A DNA stretch of 64,000 bases from Curvibacter sp. (GCA_019233055.1 JAFAMV010000162.1:3306-67305); one strand, 5' to 3'; counted from the stretch's first letter, positions 4,945 through 26,496 are shown. Made by a program: numbers and translations. Notes: generated by a model from the letters alone, not told the origin.

Positions 4945-4968
4945 GTGGGATCAGGCGAGGCCGTCGGC

Positions 4969-5994
4969 TCAGACCAGCTTCTTCAGCAACTCGGTCTTCT
5001 TGGCATCGAACTCTTCGGCGGTCAGGATGCCCTTGGTCTTGAGGTCGGCCAGCTTCTCGAGGGTGGCCATCACCTCCTCGGGCTTCACGCCCGCCGGTGC
5101 CGCAGGCGCTGCCGCGCCCGCCAGGCCGGCCGACAGGTTCTGCGCCAGCACCTGGCCCAGGGCCACACCGGCGCCCAGCCCCATGGCGTCGCCCGCCACA
5201 CCGCCGCCCTGCCCCACCCCCTCGGCCAGCTTGGGGATGGCCTGGGCGGTCTGGTACTGCATGAACTGGCCCATGTTCTGGCCCACCATGCCGATGCCGA
5301 TCTTCTGGTCGAGCACCTTCTGCAGATCCTCGGGCAGCGAGATGTTCTGCACCGTCAAGGCCTCGAGCTGCAGCCCGAGGCGGGCGAATTCGGGGGCCAG
5401 CTGGGCGCTCAAGGCCTCGGCCAGACCCTGCTGGCGGGCCGCCAGGTCGAGGAAAGGCACGCCGCTGGCGGCAATCGCATTGCTGATGTTCTGCAGCACC
5501 AGACCGCGCAACTGGCCTTCCAGGTCACCCACCGCATAACGTTCGCGGGTGCCCGAGATCTCGGTGTGGAAGCGCCGGGCGTCGGCCACGCGGAAGGCAT
5601 AGTTGCCGAAGGCCCGCAGGCGGATGGCGCCGAAATCCTGGTCGCGGATGGTCACCGGCTGGGGGGTGCCCCAGCGTTGGTCGACCTGCTGGCGCGTGCT
5701 GAAGAAATAGACATCGCTCTTGAACGGCGACTGGAACAGCTTGTCCCAGTTCTTCAGATTGGTCAGCAGCGGCAGGGTCTGGGTGCTGAGCTTGTGGGTG
5801 CCGGGGCCGAACACGTCGGCCACCTGGCCCTCGTTGACGAAGATCGCCACCTGCGACTCGCGCACGATCAGCACGCCGCCGTTCTGGATCTCCATGTCGG
5901 CCATGGGAAAGCGCCAGGCCAGGGTGCCATCGCCGTCCTCGGTCCACTGAATGACGTCAATGAACTGCTTCTTGATGAAATCCATCAGTCCCAT
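4969..5994 (-). CDS. SPFH/Band-7 family protein (YdjI-like, 'virion core protein' type) with C-terminal SHOCT-like domain
   Basis: 341 aa. The N-terminus MGLMDFIKKQFIDVIQWTEDGDG...LIVRESQVAIFVNEGQ is typical of YdjI-type SPFH proteins. The C-terminus KLADLKTKGILTAEEFDAKKTELLKKL is SHOCT-like. Confidence 0.8.
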   Translation of the reverse strand: MGLMDFIKKQFIDVIQWTEDGDGTLAWRFPMADMEIQNGGVLIVRESQVAIFVNEGQVADVFGPGTHKLSTQTLPLLTNLKNWDKLFQSPFKSDVYFFSTRQQVDQRWGTPQPVTIRDQDFGAIRLRAFGNYAFRVADARRFHTEISGTRERYAVGDLEGQLRGLVLQNISNAIAASGVPFLDLAARQQGLAEALSAQLAPEFARLGLQLEALTVQNISLPEDLQKVLDQKIGIGMVGQNMGQFMQYQTAQAIPKLAEGVGQGGGVAGDAMGLGAGVALGQVLAQNLSAGLAGAAAPAAPAGVKPEEVMATLEKLADLKTKGILTAEEFDAKKTELLKKLV

Positions 5995-6117
5995 GGCTTC
6001 CTCCTGCTCGGTGTCGGATGGATCGGGATGATACCTGGGGCCCGGGGCGCCGGCCCGGCTTTGCGCCCCAGGCGTGGGCGCGCCGCCACAGCGGCGACAG
6101 CGGCAGCAGTCCGGCGC

Positions 6118-6417
6118 TCAGGCCTGGACGCTGAGCAGGCTGCCCATCATCTGGTCCTGCGTCTGGATGGTCTGGAGGTTGGCCTTGTAGCTGTAGCTGG
6201 CCGACATCTGATTGACCAGGTCCTGCGCCAGATTGCTGCCGGCCACCGGATCGCTCGTGATGCTGGCACTCGTGCCGCCGTTCGGATCGGCCTGCTGGTT
6301 CACCACCTCGCGGTGGTAGCCGTCGGTATTGAGATTCGCGATGTTGTTGGCGGCCGCGTTGAGCTGCAGCTGGGAAGCCTGCAGGCCCGATAGGCCGATG
6401 GCACTGATGCTGGACAT
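6118..6417 (-). CDS. minimal flagellar basal-body-rod-family protein (N- and C-terminal rod motifs only)
   Basis: 99 aa. AANNIANLNTDGY fits the rod-protein N-terminal signature (N-N-[LIVM]-[SA]-N-x-x-[TSV]-x-G-[FY]). The C-terminus DLVNQMSASYSYKANLQTIQTQDQMMGSLLSV resembles the rod C-terminal helix (EMVN.I.AQRAY.AN.K.I.T.D.M...LL). No other flagellar genes lie nearby. Confidence 0.65.
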   Translation of the reverse strand: MSSISAIGLSGLQASQLQLNAAANNIANLNTDGYHREVVNQQADPNGGTSASITSDPVAGSNLAQDLVNQMSASYSYKANLQTIQTQDQMMGSLLSVQA

Positions 6418-6474
6418 GGCAACGCCCCGGTACGAAGGAAGTCCCTCGATTATCGTCGCATGCCTTCTCTTTGC

Positions 6475-6499
6475 AAAACGGCGGCCGTCAAGTCCGCCG
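6475..6499 (-). terminator. possible rho-independent terminator after the OmpA-like gene
   Basis: On the minus strand, CGGCGG-9 nt-CCGCCG is followed by TTTTGCAAAG. The stem is short (6 bp, all GC). Confidence 0.35.
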
Positions 6500-6518
6500 G
6501 GTCAGCAGAGTTGCCAGC

Positions 6519-7001
6519 TCATCTGATCTGGACCGTGACCGCGTGCCGGGCTTCCGTGGTCACATATTTGACGCGGATGTTCTTGGCCGCCACACCCAGA
6601 CGCAGCAACTCGCTGCGCACCGCCAGCGCACGCGCCAGGGCCACCTGCCGTGCGTTCTTGGGCGCATCCTGTCGGTTGCAGTAGCCGACGACCTCCAGAT
6701 GCGGCGCCTGCACCAGCGTCGGCGCCACCTCGGCCAGCAAGGCCAGGGTGTCGTCCGACAGCCGGGTGTTCTGGGGTTCGAACTCGGCCACGGTCCCGTC
6801 CTCCGGCAGGTGCCGGGGTGCGGGTGCGGCAGGGGCCGCCGGCGCCGGCGCCGCGGCGGGCGCGGCCGCTGCGGACTGACCGGCAGAGCCAGCCCCGGCC
6901 TCCGGCGCACCGGCCTGGGTGGAATCGGGCGGATTGGCAGCGCAGCCGACCAGGGACGCCGCCAGCAGGACCGTACTCAATGCAACACACTTCAAGGACA
7001 T
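6519..7001 (-). CDS. OmpA/MotB-like peptidoglycan-binding lipoprotein
   Basis: 160 aa. It has a signal peptide with the lipobox LVGC, an Ala/Pro-rich linker and a C-terminal OmpA-like segment (VVGYCNRQDAPKNARQVALARALAVRSELLRLGV). Confidence 0.75.
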   Translation of the reverse strand: MSLKCVALSTVLLAASLVGCAANPPDSTQAGAPEAGAGSAGQSAAAAPAAAPAPAAPAAPAPRHLPEDGTVAEFEPQNTRLSDDTLALLAEVAPTLVQAPHLEVVGYCNRQDAPKNARQVALARALAVRSELLRLGVAAKNIRVKYVTTEARHAVTVQIR

Positions 7002-7508
7002 GGGAAGAACTCACAGATAAAGAAAAGAAGCAGATCGGGCCCGCCCCCGGCAGGACGGCAGAGGTACAGAGGTGCACGAAGAAGGCACCAGAAGACTTCT
7101 CCAGGCACATTCTGCCCAAGCCCCATCCTGCGCCGCCAGCACCGCAAAGGGCGTAACGCCTTGCAGTGTCGTCACGATTTGTGAGAAGTTTGCGTCAATT
7201 CTGCTGTTTTATGAAGTTTTGATCCATTTCCCGCCCGCCAGCCCCAGGAGCAGGCTCGGCAGCGAGGGCGCGGCATCCGGGTCAGTGCGATTGCATTGCC
7301 GCAGGACGGCGATCCACAATCGTTGCGCCGCTTTCCGTCGCATCTGGAGCCTTCACGCAAAAGTCAAAACCGATTCACCCATTTACGCAGATTCACCTAC
7401 TAGGGTTTTCCCCGTGTAGCGGTCTACAATCGCGAACCCTTGCGAGACGCATGGCCCGCCGCTGGTGTGCGGAACCCGTCTGGCAAGCCAGCAAGCAGGA
7501 GACACTTG

Positions 7509-9821
7509 ATGCCCCACAACACCCAGGTCAACAAAGAAGAAAAACGTGCCGAACTGCGCCGCGCCGCGCTCGAATACCACGAGTTCCCGACCCCCGGCAA
7601 GGTGGCCATCGCCGCCACCAAGCAACTGGTCAACCAGCACGATCTGGCCCTGGCCTACTCGCCCGGGGTGGCCGCGCCCTGCGAAGAGATCGTCCGTGAT
7701 CCGAACACCGCCTTCAAATACACCAGCCGCGGCAACCTGGTGGCCGTGATCACCAACGGCACCGCCGTGCTGGGCCTGGGCAACATCGGCCCGCTGGCCG
7801 CCAAGCCGGTCATGGAAGGCAAGGGCGTGCTGTTCAAGAAGTTCGCCGGCATCGACGTCTTCGACATCGAGATCGACGAACAGAAAGACCTGGACAAGCT
7901 GGTCGACATCATCGCGGCCCTGGAGCCCACCTTCGGCGGCATCAACCTCGAAGACATCAAGGCCCCCGATTGCTTCTACGTCGAGCGCAAGCTGCGCGAA
8001 CGCATGAAGATCCCAGTCTTCCACGATGACCAGCACGGCACCGCCATCGTGGTGGGCGCCGCCCTGCTCAACGGCCTCAAGGTGGTGGGCAAGGACCTGA
8101 AGAAGGTCAAGCTGGTGACCTCGGGCGCCGGCGCCGCCGCCCTGGCCTGCCTGGGCCTGCTGCTCAAGCTCGGCCTGCCGCGCGAGAACATCTACGTCAC
8201 CGACCTGGCCGGCGTGGTCTACGAAGGCCGCACCGAGCTGATGGACGAGGACAAGATCCAGTTCGCCCAGAAGACCGACGCCCGCACCCTGTCCGACATC
8301 ATCGAGGGCGCCGACGTGTTCCTGGGCCTGTCCGCCGGCGGCGTGCTCAAGCAGGAAATGGTCGCCAAGATGGCGGCCAAGCCGCTGATCTTCGCCCTGG
8401 CCAATCCGAACCCGGAGATCAACCCCGAGGACGTCAAGGCGGTGCGCGACGACGCCATCATGGCCACCGGCCGCACCGACTACCCGAACCAGGTCAACAA
8501 CGTCCTGTGCTTCCCCTACATCTTCCGCGGCGCCCTCGACGCCGGGGCCTCGACGATCAATGACGCGATGGAGATCGCTGCGGTGCATGCCATCGCCGAA
8601 CTGGCCCAGGCCGAGCAGAGCGAAGTGGTGGCCGCCGCCTACGCCGGCCAGCCCCTGGCCTTCGGCCCGGAGTACCTGATCCCCAAGCCCTTCGACCCGC
8701 GCCTGATGATGATGATTGCGCCGGCCGTGGCCAAGGCGGCCGCCGACAGCGGCGTCGCCCAGCGTCCGATCCAGGACATGGAAGCCTACCGCGAGAAGCT
8801 GCAGAGCTTCGTCTACGCCTCGGGCACGACCATGAAGCCGATCTTCACCGCCGCGCGCAACGCCGCCAAGAAGCGGGTGGCCTATGCGGAAGGTGAAGAG
8901 GAACGCGTGCTGCGCGCGGCCCAGATCGTGGTCGACGAGAACATCGCCCGCCCGACCCTGATCGGCCGCCCGCCCATCATCGCCGAGCGCATCGAGAAAT
9001 TCGGCCTGCGCCTGCAGGAGGGCCGCGACTACGACGTGGTCAACGTCGAGCAGGACCACCGCTACCGCGACTTCTGGCAGACCTACCACCGCCTGACCGA
9101 GCGCAAGGGCATCACCGCCCCAATCGCCAAGATCGAGATGCGCCGCCGTCTGTCCCTGATCGGCGCAATGCTGCTGCACAAGGGCGACGTCGACGGCATG
9201 ATCTGCGGCACCTGGGGCACCAACCCCATGCACCTGAACTACATCGATCAGGTGGTGGGCAAGCGCGCCGGCGCCAACACCTATGCCTGCATGAACGGCC
9301 TGCTGCTGCCCGACCGGCAGGTCTTCCTGGTCGACACCCATGTCAACTACGACCCGACCGCCGAGCAGCTGTGCGAGATCACCATCATGGCAGCCGAGGA
9401 GATGATGCGCTTCGGCATCAAGCCCAAGGCCGCCCTGCTCTCGCACTCCAACTTCGGCAGCAGCAACCAGCCCAGCGCGGTGAAGATGCGCCAGACACTG
9501 GAGCTGCTGCAGGTCCAGGCCCCGTGGCTCGAAGTCGACGGAGAGATGCATGGCGACGTGGCCCTGGATGGTGCAGCCCGGGCCGCCCTGATGCCCCACA
9601 GCGCACTGCAGGGCAGCGCCAATCTACTGGTCCTGCCCAACATCGACGCGGCCAATATCTCGTACAACCTGCTCAAGACAGCCGCCGGCGGCAACATCGC
9701 GATCGGCCCGGTGCTGCTCGGCGCGGCACAACCTGTGCATATCCTCACGGCCAGCACCACCGTGCGCCGGATCGTGAACATGACAGCCTTGACAGTTGCC
9801 GATGCGAACGCCAGCCGGTAA
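7509..9821 (+). CDS. maeB: NADP-dependent malic enzyme (malic enzyme fused to a phosphotransacetylase-like domain)
   Basis: [21 protein letters not shown]...AYSPGVA...[26 protein letters not shown] are classic MaeB motifs. Start moved to the ATG at 7509, which is preceded by AGGAG. Confidence 0.95.
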
Positions 9822-9860
9822 GGAATTGAAGATTAGCAAGCGCTAACTTATCCACCTGTC

Positions 9861-9906
9861 GAAATGCAATGCGGCTGCCCATTTTTTGGGCAGCCGCTTG
9901 CATTTC
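9861..9906 (+). terminator. long hairpin terminator downstream of maeB
   Basis: GAAATGCAA(T)GCGGCTGCCCA-TTTTT-TGGGCAGCCGCTTGCATTTC. The 11-bp inner stem is followed by a U-rich segment that also forms a 9-bp outer stem. Confidence 0.6.
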
Positions 9907-9977
9907 AGGACCAAATACGTCAAACTTACGCTTTGAAATTTTGGGGTTTACCCGGAGTTTCCGAAAGGTGATATTTC

Positions 9978-10385
9978 ATGCTGCAAAACGTTGCCGCCAG
10001 AACAAGCCGGGCTTTGCTCACTTGTCTGTGGTTGGCAGCGGCCCTGGCGGGCACCTCATTGGTGCATGCCCGCGAGACGCCCGCAACCGATGGCCTGACA
10101 ACGGTTGCCCTGCCTGAGCTGCCGGCTCAAGGCCGAGAGACTTACCAACTGATCCTGCAAGGCGGACCTTTCCGCCATGCGAAGGATGGTGTTGTCTTCG
10201 GCAATCGGGAGCACATCCTGCCGGCGCACAAGCGGGGTTTCTACCGTGAATACACCGTACGGACACCCGGAGAGCGTGACCGAGGCGCCCGACGCATCGT
10301 CTGCGGCGGTCTGCAGCCCACGGCGCCCGACGCCTGCTATTACAGCGACGACCACTACGCGAGCTTCCGCCGCATCGTCGAATGA
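9978..10385 (+). CDS. secreted guanyl-specific ribonuclease (RNase Sa / barnase family)
   Basis: 135 aa with a signal peptide. GGPFRHAKDGVVFGNREHILPAHKRGFYREYTVRTPGERDRGARRIVCGG...YYSDDHYASFRRI aligns by eye with RNase Sa (GPFPYSQDGVVFQNRESVLP...YHEYTV.TPG...RG.RRI.CG...YYT.DHY.TF). Confidence 0.9.
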   Translation: MLQNVAARTSRALLTCLWLAAALAGTSLVHARETPATDGLTTVALPELPAQGRETYQLILQGGPFRHAKDGVVFGNREHILPAHKRGFYREYTVRTPGERDRGARRIVCGGLQPTAPDACYYSDDHYASFRRIVE

Positions 10386-10483
10386 GCCTGGGACCCGCCC
10401 TCGGTTTGACAGCGAACCCCGGCCCGGCACGAGCGTCGGGCAGGCAGCCGATTATTTTTGACCTTAGAGAAAGAGAAGCGGAG

Positions 10484-10885
10484 ATGGATACGCCACTTCG
10501 TACCGTTCGAACCAACATCGTTCAGTCGATTCGGGCCTTTCGGGTACAGGACCTTCAGGACGCCGCCCAGAGCCTGGGCCATCATTTCCTGTACGCCAAT
10601 CTGGCCAATGCGCAGTCCAAGCAGGATGTGCTCGACATGATCGCCGCCCAATTCACCTTCCCATCGCATTTCGGGAAGAATTTCGACGCGCTGTGCGACT
10701 GCATGACCGATCCGCTGCACAAATCGGGCCCGCAGCCGGGCTTCATCGTGGTGCTCGAACAGATTCCGGCCCATGCCAAGTTCGACAAGGAAGCACGGGA
10801 GCAGTTGCTCGACATCTTCCGAGACGCCGCAGACTACTGGGGGGACCGCAAGATCCCCTTCCGGTGTTTCTATTCTTTTCTGTAG
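10484..10885 (+). CDS. barstar-family ribonuclease inhibitor
   Basis: Lies immediately downstream of the RNase. FGKNFDALCDCMTD matches the barstar YGENLDALWDCLTG motif. Start set at the ATG at 10484, preceded by a purine-rich SD. Confidence 0.85.
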   Translation: MDTPLRTVRTNIVQSIRAFRVQDLQDAAQSLGHHFLYANLANAQSKQDVLDMIAAQFTFPSHFGKNFDALCDCMTDPLHKSGPQPGFIVVLEQIPAHAKFDKEAREQLLDIFRDAADYWGDRKIPFRCFYSFL

Positions 10886-11098
10886 CCCGTTCTGCACAAG
10901 CTGGCCAAGCAGAACGGGCCAACGAGGCTGAAGTCGGCACGACCCTGACCGGGATCGCCCTGACCACCCACGACAACGGCGAAAAGATGCCCACCGACAA
11001 GCTGGTGGACGTCTCGCCCCAGGCGCTGCGCATGAGCAGCCCCTTCAATTCAGGCTATTGGCTCTCCGCCGCCTGAGCGGCCTGCCCCCCCCCGCCCG

Positions 11099-17860: not shown

Positions 17861-19000
17861 ATGACCCAGCCCGTGCCCCCATCCGTGCCACCTTCAGCGC
17901 CCGCCGTCTCCGCCCCCCCGCCTCAGGCCCAGCCCCAGCCCGCGCTGCACTGGGATGATCCGCAGCGTGCCGCCGCCTTCCAGGCCTGGCTGGGCGAGGT
18001 CGCGCCCGCCCATGGGCTGGTGCCCGCCAGCGTCGTGCTGGCCTCGGCCGATGCCAGCTTCCGGCGCTACCTGCGGATCGACAGCCGCCAGGGCAGCCGC
18101 ATCATCATGGACGCGCCGCCCGAGCGCGAGAACTGCGCCCCCTTCGTCCATGTCGCCGGCCTGATGCAGGCGGCCGGCCTGCATGTGCCGGACATCCTTG
18201 CCTGGGACCGGGTCCGGGGCTTCATGCTGCTCAGCGACCTCGGGACCCACACCATGATGAGCGCGCTCGATCCCGAGCGCCCGCAGGACGCCGCCCCCCT
18301 CTACCGGCAGGCCACCGACACCCTGCTGGCCTGGCAGCAGGCCTCGCGCCCCGGCGAGCTGCCCGATTGCGACGCCGCCCTGCTGCAGCGTGAATTGGCC
18401 CTGTTTCCTGAGTGGTATGTGGGCCGGCACCGCCAGTTCAAGCTCGACGACAGCCAGCGCAGCACCCTCAGCCAGGCCTTTGACACCATCGTCGCGCACA
18501 ACCTCGCGGCGCCCCGGGTCCATGTGCACCGGGATTTCATGGCACGCAACCTGATGCTGCCGCAGACCGCCGGGGGACCGCTCGGCGTGCTCGACTTCCA
18601 GGACGCCATCCACGGCCCCATCACCTACGACATCGCCAGCCTGCTGCGCGATGCCTTCCTCAGCTGGGAAGAGGATTTCGTCATCGACATCACCGTCCGA
18701 TACTGGGAGAAGGCGCGCAAGCTGGGCCTGCTCGACTTCGAGGACTGGCACAGCGATTTCGGCGCCTTCTACCGCAGTGTCGAGTGGATGGGCCTGCAGC
18801 GCCATCTCAAGGTGGCCGGCATCTTCGCCCGCCTGACCCTGCGTGACGGCAAGCCCAGGTACCTGGCCGACACCCCGCGCTTCATCGCCTACATCCGCAG
18901 CACCGCGCACCGCTACCGCCCCCTGGCGCCGCTGCTGCGCCTGATCGACCAGATCGAGAACCTGCAGGCCGCCAGCGGCTACGCCTTCGGACGGGTCTGA
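17861..19000 (+). CDS. aminoglycoside-phosphotransferase-fold kinase, AmgK-like (anomeric MurNAc/GlcNAc kinase family)
   Basis: SADASFRRYLRI...IIMDAPPERE...LLSDLG...VHRDFMARNLM...DFQDA..GPITYDIASLL. Divergent from lptD, as for amgK in pseudomonads. Start at the ATG at 17861. Confidence 0.8.
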   Translation: MTQPVPPSVPPSAPAVSAPPPQAQPQPALHWDDPQRAAAFQAWLGEVAPAHGLVPASVVLASADASFRRYLRIDSRQGSRIIMDAPPERENCAPFVHVAGLMQAAGLHVPDILAWDRVRGFMLLSDLGTHTMMSALDPERPQDAAPLYRQATDTLLAWQQASRPGELPDCDAALLQRELALFPEWYVGRHRQFKLDDSQRSTLSQAFDTIVAHNLAAPRVHVHRDFMARNLMLPQTAGGPLGVLDFQDAIHGPITYDIASLLRDAFLSWEEDFVIDITVRYWEKARKLGLLDFEDWHSDFGAFYRSVEWMGLQRHLKVAGIFARLTLRDGKPRYLADTPRFIAYIRSTAHRYRPLAPLLRLIDQIENLQAASGYAFGRV

Positions 19001-19003
19001 ACC

Positions 19004-19756
19004 ATGCCGCGCTTCCATTGCCCGGCGCCGCTGCACGCCGGTGCCGCCCTCAGCCTGCCCGCCGGCACCGCCCGCCATGTGCAGGTGCTGCGCCTGCAGC
19101 CCGGTCAGACCATCACGCTCTTCAACGGCGAGGGCGGCGAATTCGACGCCACCATCACCCGCATGGGCCGCAGCGAGGTCGAGGTCGAGGTCGGCAGCCA
19201 TCGGCTGCTGGAGCGCGAGAACGCCCGCGCGGTGCACCTGCTGGCCTGCATGCCGGCCAATGACCGCATGGACTGGCTGGTGGAGAAGGCCACCGAACTG
19301 GGCGCCAGCCGCATCACGCCGCTGATGAGCGCCCACAGCGTGCTGCGCCTCAAGGGCGAGCGCGCCGACAAGAAGGTCGCGCACTGGCAGGCGGTGGCCG
19401 TCGGCGCCTGCGAGCAATGCGGGCGCAACCGGGTGCCCGAACTGCGGCCGGTCCAGGACCTGGCCGACTGGCTGCGCCAGTCGCCCCCCGCCGCGCCCGG
19501 TGAGACCCGCCTGCTCCTGTCGCTGCGCGAAGACAGCCGGCCGCTGGCCGAGCTGCTGGCGGGCGGCACCGGGCCGGTCACCGTGCTCAATGGCCCCGAG
19601 GGCGGACTGCAGCGCGAAGAGGAAGACGCTGCCGTCGCCGCCGGCTTCGTGCCGGTCACCCTGGGGCCGCGTGTGCTGCGCGCCGAAACCGCGCCGCTGG
19701 CCGTCCTGTTCTGCTGCACCGAGGGCGACGCGGCGCGCCACACCCCATCGACATGA
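19004..19756 (+). CDS. rsmE: 16S rRNA (uracil1498-N3)-methyltransferase
   Basis: MPRFHCP...LRLQPGQTITLFNGEGGEFDATI...ATELGASRITPL...LNGPEGGL is the typical RsmE pattern. Confidence 0.9.
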   Translation: MPRFHCPAPLHAGAALSLPAGTARHVQVLRLQPGQTITLFNGEGGEFDATITRMGRSEVEVEVGSHRLLERENARAVHLLACMPANDRMDWLVEKATELGASRITPLMSAHSVLRLKGERADKKVAHWQAVAVGACEQCGRNRVPELRPVQDLADWLRQSPPAAPGETRLLLSLREDSRPLAELLAGGTGPVTVLNGPEGGLQREEEDAAVAAGFVPVTLGPRVLRAETAPLAVLFCCTEGDAARHTPST

Positions 19757-21156
19757 CCCCTGCCCTTTCGCTGCAAGACCTCGATCTCCCGGACCTCAAT
19801 CTCGCGACCGCAGCCCCGACCGACCGCCCCGCCGATGCCGACGACTCCGGCGACGCCCGCCTGGCCGACTATTTCCGCGACACCGAAGCCGCCGGCGATT
19901 CGCCCTGGGCCGGCCGCATCGAAGCCCATGGCGCCCTGATCGACGCCCTGCGCGCGCTGTTCCACGGACCGGCCGGCCTGGTGCGCCTGCGCCTGTGGGT
20001 GTTCATGACCCTGGTCGAACAGGGCAACGCCCTGTTCAACCGCGACGAGATCGACGCCCTGCTGCATGCGCTGCGCCCAGACGCCCTGGACACGGTGCTC
20101 AAACGCCTGCGCGAAAGCGGCCTGCTGGCCTGGGACGACACCCAGCGGCGCTACCAGGTCACGCCGCTGGCCCAGCAGCTGACCGCCGTGCTCAGCCCCC
20201 TGGCGACCGCCAGCCCCGCCGACGGCGAACTTGCCGGCCTGCTGGGCCAGGTGATCGGCGCCGAGCAACTGGGCACCCTGGACGTGAACCAGATCCAGAT
20301 GCTGCAGGCCCAGCTGGTGCGTCTGCATGCCGAGTTCTCGGACGCCATCGCCAGCGGCTCCGAATTCCGCCTGCGCGAGGCGCGCAAGCGCTACGAGCGC
20401 GCCGCCACCCTGATCGACCGCGCCAGCGACACCATCGCGGCCATCATCCACCAGGCCGACGGCCATGCCGGCCTCGAAAAGGCGGCCCGGGCCCTGGGCC
20501 AGGCCCAGTCGCGCCTGCTGGCCATGGCCAGCCAGTTCAACCGGGCCCTGCAGCAGGTCGACCGCCAGCGCGTCACCCTGGGCACCACCGGCATCACCAG
20601 CACCGATGTGAAGCGCTGGCTGCAGACCCTGCCGCAGGCCGGTCGCCTGCTCGACGGCGCCCTGGCCAGCGGCCTGATCCCGGCGGCGCTGGCGCCGCAC
20701 GACCTGCTGGACGTCACCGAGGCCGAGTTCGAACGCGACCGCCCCCAGGCCGGCCGGGCCGAAAGCCTGCCCCCCGCCCTCAGCGCCCCCCAGGGCAGCC
20801 TGGCCGCCGTGGCGCTGCCGCGCGAGCTGGGCGATCTGGCCGAACTGCTGGGCGCCTGGGCCACGGGCGGCCAAGCCGGCCTGCCGCGCCCGGTGGCCGA
20901 GGCCCTGCTCGGCCCCCAGCCGGCGCGCAGCCGCTACGCCCAGGTGGCCTACAAGACCCAGCTGCTGCCCCTGCTCGGCGACGCCCAGGCGCGCGAGCTG
21001 CCGGGCGCCACCGGCGCCCTGGCTCGCCAGCCCTGGCGTGTGCAGTGGCAGGCCGCCACCCAGGCCATCGACCACGACGAGATCGAACTGCTGAGCCAGG
21101 GCCAGCTCGTGCCCGCCGCCGACACGCCCGGCCAGCCCCCCGACAAGACCCCCTGA
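19753..21156 (+). CDS. hypothetical; kleisin-like candidate (MksF/JetA position) with winged-helix-like and coiled-coil segments
   Basis: 467 aa. Acidic disordered N-terminus, wHTH-like LVEQGNALFNRDEIDALLHALRPDALDTVLKRLRESGLLAWDD and helical Q/A/R/L-rich middle. Its start overlaps the rsmE stop (ATGA). The family call rests on size, order and context only. Confidence 0.45.
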   Translation: MTPALSLQDLDLPDLNLATAAPTDRPADADDSGDARLADYFRDTEAAGDSPWAGRIEAHGALIDALRALFHGPAGLVRLRLWVFMTLVEQGNALFNRDEIDALLHALRPDALDTVLKRLRESGLLAWDDTQRRYQVTPLAQQLTAVLSPLATASPADGELAGLLGQVIGAEQLGTLDVNQIQMLQAQLVRLHAEFSDAIASGSEFRLREARKRYERAATLIDRASDTIAAIIHQADGHAGLEKAARALGQAQSRLLAMASQFNRALQQVDRQRVTLGTTGITSTDVKRWLQTLPQAGRLLDGALASGLIPAALAPHDLLDVTEAEFERDRPQAGRAESLPPALSAPQGSLAAVALPRELGDLAELLGAWATGGQAGLPRPVAEALLGPQPARSRYAQVAYKTQLLPLLGDAQARELPGATGALARQPWRVQWQAATQAIDHDEIELLSQGQLVPAADTPGQPPDKTP

Positions 21157-21160
21157 CACC

Positions 21161-21841
21161 ATGGACGACGCTGCCCTCCTGATTGCCGAACTGCTGGCCC
21201 GCCGCTACCTGCCGCGCAGCCACCCGCGTGTGAAACGTGCCCTGGTCGACGCCGAGCTGTTCGCCCAGATCGAACAACGCCTGGCCCAGTCCGGCCTGCG
21301 CTGGATGGACAACATCTACGCCGACCATGTCAGCCTCGCCCTGCTGCCGGCCGCCCAGGTCGCGGTGCTCGGCGAAAGCGCCTTGAACGCCAGCAACAAC
21401 CTGGAGCTGCCGCGCGACGCGGTGGCCCTGCTGGTCGTGGTCTGGGCGTTGATCATCCTGCCCAAGCGCGAGCGCCAGACCAGCCGCACCGCCCCCGAGG
21501 CACCGCAGGACGACATGTTCGCCGGCGCCAAGCCCCTGCCCAGCGGGCGCGATGTCAGCCCCGTGCTCTCGTACAAGGCCCTGCTCGAGGACTACGGCAA
21601 CCAGCTCGGCAAGAAGATGCGCCTGGACGCCAACCTCAAGCTGCTGGAGCGCCACGGCTTCATCGGCCGGCGCCAGGACGAGATCACCGAAGGCCCGCTG
21701 CTCGACGTGCTGCTCGACTACGACGTGCTGGCCCCGCGCATCCTCGACGGGGCGCTGGCCGATGTGCTGCAGCGCGAACGCCTGAACCCGCCCGCCGACG
21801 CCCACCCCACCCCCACCGAAGCCGCCGACCAAGGGCTCTGA
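21161..21841 (+). CDS. hypothetical; MukE/MksE/JetB-like candidate
   Basis: 226 aa, 4 nt after the previous stop and 3 nt before the next start. Its size and position match the KITE subunit of Mks/Wadjet operons. I recognise no diagnostic motif. Confidence 0.4.
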   Translation: MDDAALLIAELLARRYLPRSHPRVKRALVDAELFAQIEQRLAQSGLRWMDNIYADHVSLALLPAAQVAVLGESALNASNNLELPRDAVALLVVVWALIILPKRERQTSRTAPEAPQDDMFAGAKPLPSGRDVSPVLSYKALLEDYGNQLGKKMRLDANLKLLERHGFIGRRQDEITEGPLLDVLLDYDVLAPRILDGALADVLQRERLNPPADAHPTPTEAADQGL

Positions 21842-21844
21842 GCC

Positions 21845-24673
21845 ATGTTTCACCTGCAAAGCCTGGAGCTGGTCCACTGGGACTACTGCCAACGCGTCAG
21901 CCTGCCGCTGGACGCCTCCATCATCACCATCGCCGGCCCCAACGGCTCGGGCAAGACCACGCTGCTCGACGCCATGCGCACCCTGCTGGGCCTGCGCTGC
22001 TCGCACCCGCGCGACTTCAAGACCTATGCGCGCCACGCCGGCGCGCAGACCGCCTGGCTGCGCGCGGTGGTCGACAACCGACCGCTGAACCGCCAGAGCA
22101 GCAGCCGGCCCTTCGCCCGCCGGCTGCTCTACAGCGACCAGGTCACCCTGGCCTGCCGCATCGAGCGCAACGGCGGCGACTGGCAGCGCCGCTACCTGGT
22201 GCAGGAAGGCGACCTGAGCATCGAGCAGCTCAGCGCCATGGCCGACAAGGACCTCGGCCTCATGGGCATCGAGGCCTGGAACCGGCTGCTCGCCAGCGCC
22301 GGTCTGTCGCCCGCCATCTGCAAGGTGCTGTCGCTCGAACAGGGCCAGACCGACCGGCTGTGCGAATTCAGCCCCAAGGAACTGCTGCGCCTGGTCTTCG
22401 ACGTGTTCGGCGACCAGGACGTGCTCGACGCCTACGACACCGCGCGCGAGCACCAGCAGCAACTGGCCCGCGAGATGGGCCAGGCAGAACACGAACTCGA
22501 CCACAGCCGCGCCCAGCTGGCCGAACTGCAGAACCGGGTCAGCAACTACCAGAGCTGGCAGCACAAGGTGCAGGAACGCGAGCGACTCGCCAGCGAGGTG
22601 CTGCCGGTGCTCGAATGGCATGGCGCCCGCCGCCGGCTGGCCGAGCGCGCCCGCGAACTGCGGCGCCAGCGCCAGCAGCTCGGCAGCACCCAGACCGAAC
22701 GCACGCAGCAGCAGGGCCGCCTGCTGGACCTGCTCAAGGAACGCAGCCGGGCGCAGGACGACGAGGCCCGCCTGCTGGCCGAACGCGACGAGGCCAACCG
22801 ACTGCGCGAACAGGCCCGCGACCTCGAGGCCCCGCTCGAGGCCCTGGTCAAGCGCGAAGCCGAACTGCTGGCCCTGATCACCGACGAGACCGACACCACC
22901 GCCCTGCACACCCGCCTGGCCGAACTCGAGGCCGAACTGCAGGGCCTGCAGGAACAGTCGGCCCGGCTGCGCGAGCGCGAGGCCCAGGCCCGGTCCAGCC
23001 TGGCCGGTCTGCAGGACCGCCAGGCCCCGCCGCCGCCCGAAGAGGCGCGCAAGCTGCGCCAGCGCCTGCAGCAGGCCGGCATCGCCCACCAGTTCCTGGC
23101 CGATGTGGTCGAGGTGCGTCACGAGCCCTGGCGCCACGCCATCGAAGGCGTGCTGCGACCCAACCGCTGGATCGTGCTGCTGGAGGACGGCGCCGACGAA
23201 CTGGCCGCCTACGAACTCGCCGAACGCGAACGCTACCGCCACTACATCGTGGCGCCGGCCGAATGCCAGCGCCCGTCCGGCCAGGCCCCCGCCCACAGCC
23301 TGCTGGCCCAGCTTCACTTCAGCGCCCCGGTGCCGCGCTGGCTGCTCCAGCAACTGGAGCGCCTGCGCTGCGTCGACAGCCCGAAGGCCGGCCGTCAATC
23401 GGGCGAGGCCTGGATCACGCCCCAGGCCTATGTCTACGACGGCCGCGGGGCCCGTTCGGTCTTCGTCGAGCCGCGCGACCACCAGTTCGGCACCGCAGCC
23501 CTGCAATCGCGCCAGGCGTCCGCCGAACAGGAGCTGCAGCGGGTGCAGGCCCAGCTGGGCGAACTCGGCGCCGCACTGGCGGCCACCAAACGCCTGCGCA
23601 GCGACGTGCAGCAGTCGCTGGCCGGCCACAGCGCCGCCGAAGAGCTGGCGCGGCGCAGCGAGGAATTCGCCCAGGCCCGCGCCAGCCTGCCCGCGGCCAA
23701 GCAGCAGCGCATCGGCCAGGGCCTGCGCTGGCAGACCCTGGACAAGGCCTATGCCGCCGCCCGGACCACCCTGGTGCAGGCCGAGAACGCCTACAACGCG
23801 CTGGGCGTGTCCCTCAGGCGCGGGGTCGAGGACGGCGAGCGCCTGCGCCAGGAGCTGGACCAGCGCTGCCGCAGCCTGCGACTCGACAGCGCCGCCTCGC
23901 GCCAACGCCGCAGCGCCTTCGCCCCCGGCTGGACCCGCCCCGAGGCCGTCAGCCGCCTCGTCGACACCTACCAGAACGACACCCAGGCGCGGCTGCGCCT
24001 GGCCTCGGTCGAGGAAGACCTGCAGCAGGAAGGCTGGGAGCACGATGCCACCGTGCAGGAACGCTACCAGCGCATGGAGCTCACGGTGCGCGAGCAGGGC
24101 TACAACCTGGACGACCACCAGGTGAAGAATGCCCAGGCCGCCACTGCGGTGCACAACGCCCGCGAGAGCTACATCGAGGTGCTGCGCGCCACCGTGCGCC
24201 GCTACCGCAACAACATCCGCGAACTCGGCCTGCTGGCCGGCGTGGACGTCGCCGCCGAACTGCCGGTGCTCGAGAACCACGACAGCGTGCTGGCCCAGGC
24301 CGGCCTCAAGGTGCATTTCAGCTTCGACGGCAAGGGCAGCATCGGCCTCAACGACGGCGAGGCCTCGGGCGGCCAGCAGGTCATCAAATCGCTGATCCTG
24401 CTGGTGGGCCTGCTCAAGGACGACGAGACCCCGGGCGGCTTCGTCTTCATCGACGAGCCCTTCGCCCACCTGGACGTGCGCAACATCCAGCTGGTGGGCC
24501 ATTTCCTGCGCAGCACCCAGGCCCAGTACGTGCTGACCACCCCGATCACCCACAACCTCGAGGTCTTCGAGCCCTCCGAGATCACCCTGGTGACCGGCAA
24601 GAAACCCAAGGACTCGAAATGGGCGCCCCCGATCGCGGTGGCCAAACGCCGGGCCCCGGCCGAGGTGGTGTGA
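21845..24673 (+). CDS. SMC-family ABC ATPase (MksB/JetC-like)
   Basis: 942 aa. N-terminal head LELVHWDYC...ITIAGPNGSGKTTLLDAM (Walker A), long heptad-like Q/R/E/L/A coiled coils, central hinge-like globular block (GIAHQFLADVVEVRHEPWRHAIEGVLRPNRWIVLLED) and a C-terminal head with signature EASGGQQ and Walker B FVFIDEPFAHLD. Confidence 0.8.
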   Translation: MFHLQSLELVHWDYCQRVSLPLDASIITIAGPNGSGKTTLLDAMRTLLGLRCSHPRDFKTYARHAGAQTAWLRAVVDNRPLNRQSSSRPFARRLLYSDQVTLACRIERNGGDWQRRYLVQEGDLSIEQLSAMADKDLGLMGIEAWNRLLASAGLSPAICKVLSLEQGQTDRLCEFSPKELLRLVFDVFGDQDVLDAYDTAREHQQQLAREMGQAEHELDHSRAQLAELQNRVSNYQSWQHKVQERERLASEVLPVLEWHGARRRLAERARELRRQRQQLGSTQTERTQQQGRLLDLLKERSRAQDDEARLLAERDEANRLREQARDLEAPLEALVKREAELLALITDETDTTALHTRLAELEAELQGLQEQSARLREREAQARSSLAGLQDRQAPPPPEEARKLRQRLQQAGIAHQFLADVVEVRHEPWRHAIEGVLRPNRWIVLLEDGADELAAYELAERERYRHYIVAPAECQRPSGQAPAHSLLAQLHFSAPVPRWLLQQLERLRCVDSPKAGRQSGEAWITPQAYVYDGRGARSVFVEPRDHQFGTAALQSRQASAEQELQRVQAQLGELGAALAATKRLRSDVQQSLAGHSAAEELARRSEEFAQARASLPAAKQQRIGQGLRWQTLDKAYAAARTTLVQAENAYNALGVSLRRGVEDGERLRQELDQRCRSLRLDSAASRQRRSAFAPGWTRPEAVSRLVDTYQNDTQARLRLASVEEDLQQEGWEHDATVQERYQRMELTVREQGYNLDDHQVKNAQAATAVHNARESYIEVLRATVRRYRNNIRELGLLAGVDVAAELPVLENHDSVLAQAGLKVHFSFDGKGSIGLNDGEASGGQQVIKSLILLVGLLKDDETPGGFVFIDEPFAHLDVRNIQLVGHFLRSTQAQYVLTTPITHNLEVFEPSEITLVTGKKPKDSKWAPPIAVAKRRAPAEVV

Positions 24674-24780
24674 GACCACCCCGTTGCTCCGCAGCCTGGC
24701 AACCGATGACTGCGCGCCGGTTTCATGCGTCGCGGGTGACGCGCAGCGCCTTGGACCACTGATGTGAGGCCAGGGCTGAT

Positions 24781-26319
24781 TCAGCGCTGACGGCCGAGCA
24801 CCCCGCGACGGTACTGCACCGCCTCGGCGACATGCGGGCTGCCGATGGGGCCGCCGCCGGCCAGGTCGGCCACGCTGCGCGCCACCTTGAGCACCCGGTG
24901 GATGCTGCGCGCCGACCAGCCCAGCTTCAGCGCCACCGCCTGCAGCAGGGCCAGGGCCTCGGGCTGCAGGCGGGCCTGCTCGTCGAGCGCCGCGCCCTGC
25001 AGGTCCTGGTTGCTGCAGCCCTGGCGCTGCAGGGCCAGGTCGCGCGCCTGCTGCACCCGGGCCCGGATGGCAGCGCTGCCCGCCCCCGGCGGCGCCTGCA
25101 GCAGTTGCTCCGGCGGCAGTGCGTTGACCTCGACCTGCAGGTCGATGCGGTCGAGCAGCGGCCCGCTGAGCTTGCCCTGGTAGCGCGTGACCTGCTCGGG
25201 CGTGCAACGGCAGGCCCGCAGGCTCGAGCCCAGGTAGCCGCAGGGACAGGGGTTCATCGCGGCCACCAGTTGGAAGGCGGCCGGGAACTCGCTGCGGCGC
25301 GCCGCCCGCGAGATCGTGATGCGGCGGGTCTCCAGCGGTTCGCGCAGGGCTTCGAGGGCGCTGCGCGGGAACTCGGCGATCTCGTCGAGGAAGAGCACGC
25401 CATGGTGCGCCAGCGAGATCTCGCCGGGGCGCGGCGGCGAGCCGCCACCCACCAGGGCCACTGCGCTGGCGGTGTGGTGCGGCTGCCGGGTCGGCCGCAG
25501 CGCCCATTGCTCAGGTGAAAAGCGGCCGTCCAGGCTGAACAGTGCCGCCGATTCGAGGGCCTCGTCCAGGCTCATGTCGGGCAGCAGGCCGGCGAAGCGC
25601 TGCGCCAGCATCGATTTGCCCGAGCCGGGCGGTCCCGACATCAACAGGCTGTGGCCGCCGGCGGCCGCGATCTCCAGGGCGCGCTTGGCCGCCGCCTGGC
25701 CCTTGACCTCGGCCAGGTCCGGGTAGTCGCTCTGGCGCGGCCGCGCCGGGCTGTCGAGCCGGCACCAGCCCTCGTCGGCCCCGACCGGGGCCGCCTCGGC
25801 CGACGGCGCAAAGGCCTGGACCACATCCAGCAGGTGGCGGGCGCGCCAGACCTGGGCTTCGGGGACCAGGGCCGCCTCCTCGGCGCTGCCCGGTGGCAGC
25901 ACCAGGCGGGCCGCAAGCCCCTGCCGGCGCAGGGCCAGGCTCATGGCCAGGGCACCCCGCACCGGGCGCAAGGCCCCCGACAGCGAGAGCTCGCCGGCAA
26001 ACTCATGCCCGGCCAGGCGGGCGGCATCGATCTGGCCGCTGGCGGCCAGCAGGCCGAGCGCGATCGGCAGATCGAAGCGGCCCGAGTCCTTGGGCAGATC
26101 GGCCGGCGCCAGGTTGACCGTGATGCGCTTGTTGTGTGGGAAGTCGAGCCCCGAGTTCTGCAGGGCCGAGCGCACGCGCTCGCGCGCCTCCTTGACCTCG
26201 ACCTCGGCCAGCCCGACCAGGGTGAAGCTGGGCAGCCCGTTGGCCAGATGCACCTCGACCGTCACCGGGGCGGCCTCCAGACCCAGCTGGGCCCGGCTTT
26301 GCACCAAAGAAAGACACAT
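24781..26319 (-). CDS. yifB: YifB/ComM family Mg-chelatase-like AAA+ ATPase
   Basis: SRAQLGLEAAPVTVEVHLANGLPSFTLVGL...RITVNLAPADLPKDSGRFDLPIALGLL...GPPGSGKSMLA...GVLFLDEI. I prefer the start at the internal Met (26319), because the longer ORF would cover the NtrC-like site of the divergent promoter. Confidence 0.9.
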   Translation of the reverse strand: MCLSLVQSRAQLGLEAAPVTVEVHLANGLPSFTLVGLAEVEVKEARERVRSALQNSGLDFPHNKRITVNLAPADLPKDSGRFDLPIALGLLAASGQIDAARLAGHEFAGELSLSGALRPVRGALAMSLALRRQGLAARLVLPPGSAEEAALVPEAQVWRARHLLDVVQAFAPSAEAAPVGADEGWCRLDSPARPRQSDYPDLAEVKGQAAAKRALEIAAAGGHSLLMSGPPGSGKSMLAQRFAGLLPDMSLDEALESAALFSLDGRFSPEQWALRPTRQPHHTASAVALVGGGSPPRPGEISLAHHGVLFLDEIAEFPRSALEALREPLETRRITISRAARRSEFPAAFQLVAAMNPCPCGYLGSSLRACRCTPEQVTRYQGKLSGPLLDRIDLQVEVNALPPEQLLQAPPGAGSAAIRARVQQARDLALQRQGCSNQDLQGAALDEQARLQPEALALLQAVALKLGWSARSIHRVLKVARSVADLAGGGPIGSPHVAEAVQYRRGVLGRQR

Positions 26320-26393
26320 CTCCAGATCGCTCCCCGCAACACCTTCACCAGAAGAGTGCATTTGTAATGGCTTCGGCGTAGGCTGGGCAGGTC

Positions 26394-26410
26394 TGCACCA
26401 AACAGGTGCC
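26394..26410 (+). promoter_or_regulatory. NtrC-type enhancer half-palindrome
   Basis: TGCACCAAACAGGTGCC versus the consensus TGCACC-N5-GGTGCA (one mismatch). It lies about 100 bp upstream of the sigma-54-like promoter. Confidence 0.5.
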
Positions 26411-26496
26411 TTTGTCACCATTCATTCACATAGAAAGGAGCCGTTCTGGGGCGTGCAGACCATTCAGGCCCTGATCAGACTGAGGGCATTCCGTGT

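Follow-up and report, generated by a model that had tools for sequence, protein, structure and literature searches.

MukBEF of Escherichia coli and MksBEF of Pseudomonas aeruginosa, three-gene kleisin-KITE-SMC systems, are both suspected to be descendants of Wadjet, a plasmid-defence system, that arose by loss of the JetD nuclease (PMC10586767). Type I Wadjet, whose genes are named JetABCD, MksBEFG or EptABCD, has the order kleisin, KITE subunit, SMC ATPase and Toprim nuclease. The known examples of MukBEF and MksBEF are ancient, and the transition cannot be studied directly in them. Here we describe a locus from Curvibacter sp. in which three genes, A, B and C, form a kleisin-KITE-SMC operon with no nuclease gene in the window, meaning the whole 64,000-nucleotide stretch that was analysed (GCA_019233055.1 JAFAMV010000162.1:3306-67305). 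The trio is probably the motor of a divergent, short-armed Wadjet-type SMC complex, with a role that would be independent of JetD and likely MksBEF-like. The short-armed lineage is uncatalogued: the literature searched describes neither it nor a fourth type of Wadjet, and reports no Wadjet from these genera.

The trio lies within a run of genes on the plus strand. This run opens with an amgK-like gene for an APH-family kinase (17861..19000, start codon uncertain; Pfam APH, 2.9e-29), followed by the 16S rRNA methyltransferase gene rsmE (19004..19756; Pfam Methyltrans_RNA, 1.7e-45, plus PUA_4), whose stop codon and the start codon of gene A overlap as ATGA, read directly in the sequence. Gene A (19753..21156, plus strand, 467 aa) is separated by 4 nt (cacc) from gene B (21161..21841, plus strand, 226 aa), and B by 3 nt (gcc) from gene C (21845..24673, plus strand, 942 aa). 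Beyond the C stop comes a 107-nt spacer (24674..24780), the slot that JetD takes in orthologous loci and that lacks it here, and then the stop of the convergent comM/yifB (24781..26421, minus strand), a Mg-chelatase-like AAA+ gene (Pfam Mg_chelatase, 2.9e-92) that delimits the module on its 3' side. The ORF coordinates and Pfam matches thus agree with the initial annotation, which had described tight packing of the three genes, amgK-like and rsmE genes directly upstream, and a convergent yifB/comM next. Its view that the module is native and not an island also holds, as GC3 is 0.92 in A, B and C and 0.91-0.92 in rsmE and amgK. A promoter and terminator scan returned one weak promoter-like site within amgK and no terminator-like sites, and expression of the trio would be driven from the rsmE operon. 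The mukFEB genes of E. coli likewise lie downstream of a methyltransferase gene in one run.

The order A-B-C is invariant in all 80 related loci, so the arrangement is not due to chance. The upstream setting is also kept: about 45 loci retain the lptD/amgK/rsmE synteny and the rsmE-A adjacency. The amgK-like gene has a divergent lptD next to it in some 45 loci of Comamonadaceae, and also in L093, the closest relative. Downstream, comM/yifB follows C in none of the 80. A tree of C follows the genera, with JetD-bearing and JetD-less tips interleaved. Tree, synteny and matching GC3 together show that the lineage is inherited vertically beside lptD-amgK-rsmE in Comamonadaceae. Vertical inheritance within a housekeeping operon sets the window locus apart from type I Wadjet, while a chromosomal housekeeping setting is shared with MksBEF and MukBEF.

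Gene C encodes a complete SMC-type ATPase, unusually short and with an Smc-like hinge. The N-terminal head (residues ~1-195) includes Walker A, GPNGSGKT, at residues 31-38 (nt 21935-21958); there are two arms of ~200 and ~230 residues and a hinge at ~399-549 (nt 23039-23491); and the C-terminal head has SGGQ at 841-844 and Walker B, FVFIDE, at 866-871 (nt 24440-24457). C carries the block GIAHQFLADVVEVRHEPWRHAIEGVL, the signature ASGGQ and the Walker B sequence FVFIDEPFAHLD, all of which, like Walker A, are invariant across 39 homologues. These are the features on which the initial annotation had based its call of an SMC-type ATPase with arms and a hinge-like block, and each was present. Pfam places C with SMC_N (1.5e-15) and also with AAA_29 and AAA_23. 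In PADLOC it is JetC-like, with the JetC1 models matching best (6.4e-35, for the most part over coiled coil). The best PDB match of the C profile is the archaeal Smc hinge of P. furiosus (4rsj_A, 3e-5), with the hinge motifs aligned, and the same hinge type has been published for Wadjet-I. Members of the C family are 930-948 aa long, against ~1100-1200 positions in the JetC1 models and 1486 in the NCBIfam model of the much larger MukB, in keeping with the earlier remark that a 942-aa ATPase is short. Against those usual in Smc, the arms are shorter by about a third.

The proteins encoded by A and B are harder to place. In an AF2 model of A (pLDDT 75 overall, ~90 in both winged-helix domains), an N-terminal winged-helix domain (~37-150) leads into a long helical region (158-305), after which residues 306-354 form a disordered linker to the C-terminal winged-helix domain (356-455). 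The sole Foldseek match in the PDB below 1e-3 was MukF (9gm7_C, 7.7e-4 over 437 columns), and further top matches were MukF again (9gm9_D, 3euh_B and 7nyw_C) and JetA (8as8_E). The model of B (pLDDT = 64) has two winged-helix domains (~1-105 and ~133-185) with a disordered linker between them, and its top three Foldseek matches were all JetB chains (8as8_C at 2.9e-5; 8dk1_E/F at 5e-5, probability 1.0), with JetB E-values ranging from 3e-5 to 6e-5; MAGE-G1/Nse3, MukE and ScpB came after them. On these folds, A is best described as a very divergent JetA/MukF-type kleisin and B as a very divergent JetB-like KITE protein, assignments that come from a fold search on medium-confidence models whose TM-scores are low because of flexible linkers.

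No sequence-profile link from A or B to JetA, JetB, MukF or MukE was found with family models, with family profiles against PDB sequences, or with hhalign. The window A had no match at E<=1 in Pfam, NCBIfam or PADLOC, DUF3375 and the JetA models included, and a Pfam scan of 38 diverse A-family members was negative as well, with no JetA/DUF3375 match at E<=0.1 for 37 further members. B matched no Pfam, NCBIfam or PADLOC sequence model at E<=1, DUF4194 and the JetB models among them, and its family profile matched no PDB sequence. In hhalign, A against E. coli MukF and B against E. coli MukE each gave a probability below 1%. The A family is small, with only 196 representatives among 1.84e9 proteins, while B is the best conserved of the three proteins, at 73-86% identity across Comamonadaceae. 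The structure searches thus agree with the SMC/kleisin/KITE architecture first claimed for the trio, A pointing to MukF/JetA and B to JetB, and they replace the suggestion that A and B might be a new accessory pair; of the profile and structure searches that had been proposed to place the two proteins, the structural half succeeded and the profile half, aimed at DUF3375 and DUF4194, did not.

Gene order and sizes that mirror mukF-mukE-mukB, together with weak matches of C to generic SMC_N, AAA_23, SbcC_Walker_B and LmuB models, would also fit an already familiar system: either an ordinary MksBEF, MukBEF or Smc-ScpAB, or an SbcC/Rad50, RecN or Lamassu LmuB ATPase that happens to adjoin two unrelated small genes. 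Such a reading is very improbable, as there is no full match to MukF, MukE, MukB, DUF3375, DUF4194, ScpA or ScpB, and the MukB model touches C over the P-loop only (E 0.005-0.009). C also lacks a CxxC zinc hook, and SbcD and LmuA neighbours are absent; A has a kleisin fold and B a KITE fold, and relatives carry JetD. The concern raised at the outset that the trio might be the ordinary MksBEF group is answered by the lack of any match at E<=1 to MukF, MukE, DUF3375, DUF4194, ScpA or ScpB, and the matching concern over an SbcC/Rad50/RecN-type ATPase by the missing zinc hook, the hinge and the kleisin and KITE partners.

Individual candidates were set aside on similar grounds. SbcCD/Rad50 was rejected for the hinge-like domain that C has in place of CxxC and for the lack of a conserved SbcD-type nuclease neighbour, and RecN for the hinge and the kleisin and KITE partners. 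For Lamassu (LmuABC), the LmuB models score below JetC1, the partners are a kleisin and a KITE protein, and there is no LmuA-type effector gene. Smc-ScpAB shares the SMC-kleisin-KITE architecture; the hinge profile of C fits an archaeal Smc hinge best, and ScpB is among the fold matches of B. That said, C falls far under the SMC equivalog cutoffs (74.5 bits against TIGR02168, SMC_prok_B, where the cutoff is 567), no ScpA or ScpB model matches A or B, A, which has a winged-helix domain at its N terminus, is a kleisin in the style of MukF/JetA and not an ScpA, and JetD is tied to the lineage of the window.

The link to JetD comes from comparison of related loci. Of 72 assessable orthologous loci in Burkholderiales, 28 have a JetD homologue directly after C. 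It starts 20-120 nt past C and has the invariant Toprim-like residues E274, D323xD325 and KxEQE; no Pfam or NCBIfam model matches these Burkholderiales proteins. Three distant metagenomic relatives (L086, L089 and L090) also have a fourth gene, which matches PADLOC JetD1 (7e-26, 4e-22 and 1.5e-11) and Pfam JetD_C or DUF2399. The window proteins align with theirs over full length, at 24-29% identity for A (E ~1e-39), 35-40% for B and 33-39% for C. Within the 64-kb window, tblastn with three JetD proteins of the same lineage gave no match at E<=1e-3. JetD is likewise missing from 42 of the 72 assessable relatives and from the closest one, 86% identical to the window, in which A, B and C are intact and the downstream genes differ from those of the window. 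Because JetD follows C in so many orthologous loci and in distant relatives, the window holds a copy, with JetD deleted, of a Wadjet-type system of four genes. The claim that the module has no nuclease gene is thus right for the window and wrong for the operon family.

The nuclease gene has been deleted repeatedly and in place. JetD is present in Paracidovorax oryzae, P. cattleyae and P. anthurii, cleanly deleted in P. citrulli and truncated in P. avenae. Relative to P. oryzae, and with 95-97% nucleotide identity elsewhere, P. citrulli has a 2.4-kb deletion that begins just past the C stop, and P. avenae a 410-bp internal deletion. At the level of a genus, no sampled locus of the Roseateles/Mitsuaria/Paucibacter clade has JetD, and the trio is found in all of them; one nested sequence was not assessable. 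Such coexistence of JetD-bearing and JetD-less loci among sister species differs from the situation in MksBEF and MukBEF, and it implies that the transition is recent and repeated.

A copy that has lost its nuclease might simply be a disabled defence system in decay, JetD having gone perhaps under selection to accept plasmids and the other genes surviving because little time has passed. The locus is still being eroded in P. avenae and Diaphorobacter nitroreducens, as their JetD fragments show; some MAGs have insertions, IS and others, between B and C, and Variovorax megaplasmids carry a copy truncated by IS1071. We consider this quite improbable. All three ORFs and the ATPase motifs are intact in 41 of 43 JetD-less loci, neither the window nor its 86%-identical relative has JetD while the genes of both are intact, and the trio has been retained throughout the sampled Roseateles clade. 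Moreover, dN/dS in 43 close JetD-less pairs is 0.10 for A, 0.13 for B and 0.05 for C, a range of 0.05-0.13 that lies below the adjacent housekeeping genes RsmE (0.15) and AmgK (0.15). These values are limited to close pairs, as dS saturates near 0.55 at a GC3 of 0.92 and all-pairs values are uninformative, and some of the pairs may be recent losers of JetD. Because strong purifying selection maintains A, B and C in lineages that lack JetD, the three must function in its absence. The selection implies a JetD-independent role, and the motor is probably of use without its nuclease both in the window and in its JetD-less relatives, which make up over half.

What that role might be is a separate matter, and the trio could still be a defence system that, with no JetD of its own, restricts foreign circular DNA such as plasmids. 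It might rely on a JetD or another nuclease encoded elsewhere, and the JetD search covered only 64 kb of the genome, or it might compact or silence small circles without cutting them, much as Smc5/6 silences extrachromosomal DNA. The family is of Wadjet type with JetD in many members, one distant JetD-bearing relative lies in a restriction/toxin-antitoxin island (with a restriction enzyme, a methyltransferase and an antitoxin), and purifying selection fits any retained function, chromosomal or other. Nevertheless, a defence role seems unlikely: the many in-place JetD deletions with A, B and C kept would be odd if cleavage were the purpose, and defence genes are not usually passed on vertically and in synteny within an rsmE operon. 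In the characterised Wadjet/MksBEFG systems, moreover, the nuclease is the executing part, as described in the review PMC10586767 and in the title of PMC10123090.

The most likely role for the trio, by analogy and on the indirect evidence of vertical inheritance and of purifying selection in JetD-less loci, is taken to be an MksBEF-like one in chromosome folding, segregation or maintenance. By analogy with MukBEF and Wadjet-I structures, C would dimerise through its Smc-like hinge, with two ATPase heads that engage on ATP. The helical region of A, together with its winged-helix domain at the C terminus, would link one C at the neck to the other at the cap, while the N-terminal winged-helix domain of A probably couples two such motors. 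B, as a dimer, would sit midway along A. Once loaded on DNA, the assembly would extrude loops. Where JetD follows C it would complete a plasmid-cleaving Wadjet system; in its absence the trio would fold, segregate or maintain the chromosome. This chromosomal role is a proposal for the window trio, whereas for MksBEF and MukBEF it is not, and A and B have no detectable sequence similarity to MukF and MukE.

It is conceivable, if rather less than an even bet, that the vertically inherited, short-armed lineage of Comamonadaceae and Sphaerotilaceae is turning, in repeated and independent conversions, into a chromosomal SMC complex without a nuclease, the window being one converted copy. With similar reserve, the conversion may represent one more domestication of Wadjet, distinct from the ones suggested for MukBEF and MksBEF. 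In any case, JetABCD and JetABC occupy the same locus in sister species with 95-97% identical DNA, and syntenic orthologous loci in close, culturable species differ mainly in the presence of JetD, with the motor genes under strong purifying selection in both states. The lineage thus allows experimental study of a Wadjet motor without its nuclease, and of how a defence machine might turn into a chromosome organiser. Pfam, NCBIfam and PADLOC miss A and B throughout the lineage, and the first two also miss its Burkholderiales JetD. The short SMC arms (~200-230 residues) may also inform the relation between arm length and DNA-size sensing.

Copies of the lineage occur on plasmids as well. A plasmid search for canonical type I JetABCD returned only this same short-armed lineage, and truncated plasmid-borne copies are found on Variovorax megaplasmids and on a Diaphorobacter plasmid.

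Three tightly packed genes on the + strand, A (19753-21156, 467 aa), B (21161-21841, 226 aa) and C (21845-24673, 942 aa), encode the kleisin, KITE and SMC subunits of a divergent Wadjet-type system. The initial annotation had placed these open reading frames at the same coordinates, with gaps of 4 nt between A and B and 3 nt between B and C, and this is confirmed. The start of A is overlapped by the stop of rsmE (as ATGA), the same-strand genes upstream are an amgK-like kinase of the APH family and rsmE itself, and comM lies convergently downstream of C. GC3 is 0.92 in A, B and C, compared with 0.91-0.92 in rsmE and amgK.

Gene C includes a Walker A motif (GPNGSGKT), a Q-loop, the signature SGGQ, a Walker B motif (FVFIDE) and an H-loop histidine, and all five are invariant across 39 homologues. 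A search for a CxxC zinc hook in C found none. Family models match it only at the generic SMC/ABC level (SMC_N, AAA_29, AAA_23); its score lies far under the SMC equivalog cutoffs, MukB models match the P-loop only, and the best PADLOC models are JetC1, mostly across the coiled coil. When the C profile was compared with the PDB, the top match was the hinge of Pyrococcus Smc (4rsj, E 3e-5), in which 'GIxHxFLAEVVEVxDExWRxAIEGVL' lines up with the classic entry motif of Smc hinges and 'ITPQAYxxDGRGARS' with the 'G...tGG' segment of Smc. This alignment and the helix-breaking residues give an estimate, based on sequence rather than structure, of about 200 residues for one arm and 230 for the other, some two thirds as long as SMC arms usually are.

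For the two smaller proteins, sequence models and structures gave different answers. Neither A nor B matched anything in Pfam, NCBIfam or PADLOC at E<=1, their profiles found no relevant match among PDB sequences, and a Pfam scan of 38 full-length A-family members matched no family. AlphaFold2 modelled A (pLDDT 75) with an N-terminal and a C-terminal winged-helix domain, between which lie a long helical region and then a disordered linker of some 50 residues; its only PDB fold match under E 1e-3 is the MukF kleisin (9gm7_C, 437 aligned columns), with more MukF chains and JetA (8as8_E) within the top whole-chain matches. The model of B (pLDDT 64) contains two winged-helix domains, and three JetB chains lead its fold matches (E 3e-5 to 6e-5, probability 1.0), ahead of Nse3/MAGE, MukE and ScpB, all of them KITE proteins. 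The SMC/kleisin/KITE reading proposed in the initial annotation therefore holds at the level of fold, and the motifs of C bear it out as well. The family-model results argue against placing the trio in a condensin or repair family that is already known, an assignment we regard as highly improbable.

A nuclease gene accompanies the trio in many relatives. Neighbourhoods were examined for distant A-family members, with 24-31% identity to A of the window. In two of these loci (L086 and L090), A-B-C is followed by a gene matching Pfam JetD_C and PADLOC JetD1 (E 7e-26 and 4e-22), and in a third (L089) the JetD-like gene is divergent (DUF2399; JetD1 1.5e-11). The neighbours of L086 include an antitoxin gene, a DNA methyltransferase gene and one for an Eco29kI-type restriction enzyme. 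In all three loci, A, B and C align full-length with their window counterparts, and C, at 936-939 aa, is the same size as that of the window. With these JetD proteins as queries, a JetD homologue of about 400 aa was found directly 3' of C in 28 of 80 related Burkholderiales loci; 42 were without JetD, 2 had JetD fragments, and 8 were unassessable owing to contig ends. The Burkholderiales JetD proteins matched no Pfam or NCBIfam model and have invariant Toprim-type residues (IENRTSFE, DxDPxG, KxEQE). The same queries found no JetD across the 64 kb of the window. The idea of a nuclease-less module thus stands for the window copy, at least locally, but not for its orthologues, which often include JetD. 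With only 64 kb of the genome visible, there is some room for a role in defence, either with a nuclease from another part of the genome or by a mechanism that involves no cutting, though we consider this unlikely.

JetD has been lost repeatedly while the motor genes were kept, and its distribution is patchy even among close relatives. The tree of C matches genus-level taxonomy, with JetD+ and JetD- tips interleaved. Within Paracidovorax, DNA comparison at 95-97% identity with P. oryzae as reference revealed three distinct changes at the site of JetD: a 410-bp deletion within JetD in P. avenae, a 2.4-kb deletion beginning just past the C stop in P. citrulli, and other DNA in place of JetD in Acidovorax sacchari. 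The sampled Roseateles/Mitsuaria/Paucibacter clade has no JetD locus save that of Pelomonas Root1444, with one nested sequence unassessable (contig ends), and JetD is present outside this clade in Ideonella, Rhizobacter and Herminiimonas.

Selection maintains the copies that have no JetD. By the criteria applied here, A, B and C are all intact in 41 of 43 JetD-less loci, and only a scorable A is missing from the two exceptions, L065, whose contig begins inside B so that A is off the contig, and L077. Every complete JetD-less C retains intact ATPase motifs. Among close pairs, dN/dS for A, B and C was 0.10, 0.13 and 0.05 in JetD-less loci (43 pairs) and 0.13, 0.20 and 0.11 in JetD+ loci (3 pairs, in which D itself gave 0.22); the neighbours gave 0.15 and 0.15 (RsmE) and 0.15 and 0.16 (AmgK), respectively. 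Both the intact trios and the low dN/dS speak against a recent inactivation followed by decay, which is very unlikely.

The module is best described as part of a Wadjet lineage that is uncatalogued, has short arms and is inherited vertically; the copy in the window is JetD-less. A, B and C would assemble as in Wadjet-I and MukBEF into a complex predicted to extrude DNA loops, and a motor of this kind without JetD probably serves a nuclease-independent function, most likely an MksBEF-like role on the chromosome. A review has proposed an origin of MksBEF and MukBEF from JetABCD, likewise by loss of JetD (PMC10586767). The main value of the present lineage is that it opens this proposed transition from Wadjet to condensin to testing in culturable, closely related species. 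The literature searched recognises only Wadjet types I-III and makes no mention of the lineage.

A, B and C are conserved throughout Comamonadaceae and Sphaerotilaceae, and the family occurs in at least two genera of Oxalobacteraceae (Herminiimonas and, for A, Janthinobacterium). Database annotation of the homologues is always hypothetical or ATP-binding. The A family is small: a profile search of 1.84 billion proteins recovered just 196 representatives. The A-B-C order is invariant in all 80 genome loci; the upstream lptD/amgK/rsmE context is common to about 45 Comamonadaceae loci, and other clades have different neighbours. L093, the closest relative of the window (86% identical in C), shares its lptD-APH-rsmE-A-B-C layout and likewise has no JetD. 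Immediately after C, however, it has a convergent GD_AH dehydratase and TctC (9532-11091) where the window has comM (24674-26421), and comM follows C in none of the 80 related loci. The place where JetD used to lie resembles a hotspot of rearrangement.

In E. coli K-12 (NC_000913.3, 972500-980500), ycbJ (an APH-like phosphotransferase), cmoM (a methyltransferase), mukF, mukE and mukB parallel the APH kinase, rsmE (a methyltransferase), A, B and C of the window (17861-24673). Similarity between the two kinases is weak and at superfamily level only (27% over 90 aa, E 5e-4), and cmoM and rsmE are annotated as different methyltransferase families, so the parallel is probably coincidental.

Several loci depart from the usual layout. 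The gene overlapping the A start differs in distant relatives, being a 507-aa protein in L082 and L083 (6481-8004), which matches nothing in Pfam or PADLOC and does not resemble JetD, and an RmuC-family protein (Pfam 8.8e-92) in L088 (1-1413). L084 encodes a 471-aa weak relative of A (3476-4891; E ~2e-8 across the N-terminal two thirds). Neither B nor C is close to this solitary gene, whose neighbours are isoprenoid and succinyl-CoA synthetase genes, and its product may be another type of protein that combines winged-helix and coiled-coil parts. Insertions between B and C comprise a GNAT acetyltransferase and an ISL3 transposase in L043 (8700-14500) and a class-I methyltransferase open reading frame in L053 (8700-10060), both possibly misassemblies since these loci are MAGs, and about 500 nt in the complete genome L014 (8624-9207). 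In the complete chromosome of Polaromonas sp. P2-4, fragmented tblastn matches for amgK, rsmE, A and C suggest numerous frameshifts throughout the region, for which errors in assembly or sequencing are a likelier explanation than real pseudogenes. On plasmid 2 (816 kb) of Variovorax sp. WDL1 (4471-10092), an IS1071 transposase gene directly precedes a 457-aa 'ATP-binding protein', taken for a truncated C by size and annotation only, then a JetD homologue of the window's lineage, xseA and xseB; a mobilisable 42-kb plasmid of Diaphorobacter sp. HDW4A carries a JetD fragment (1075-1734). The lineage therefore also occurs, in disrupted form, on secondary replicons.
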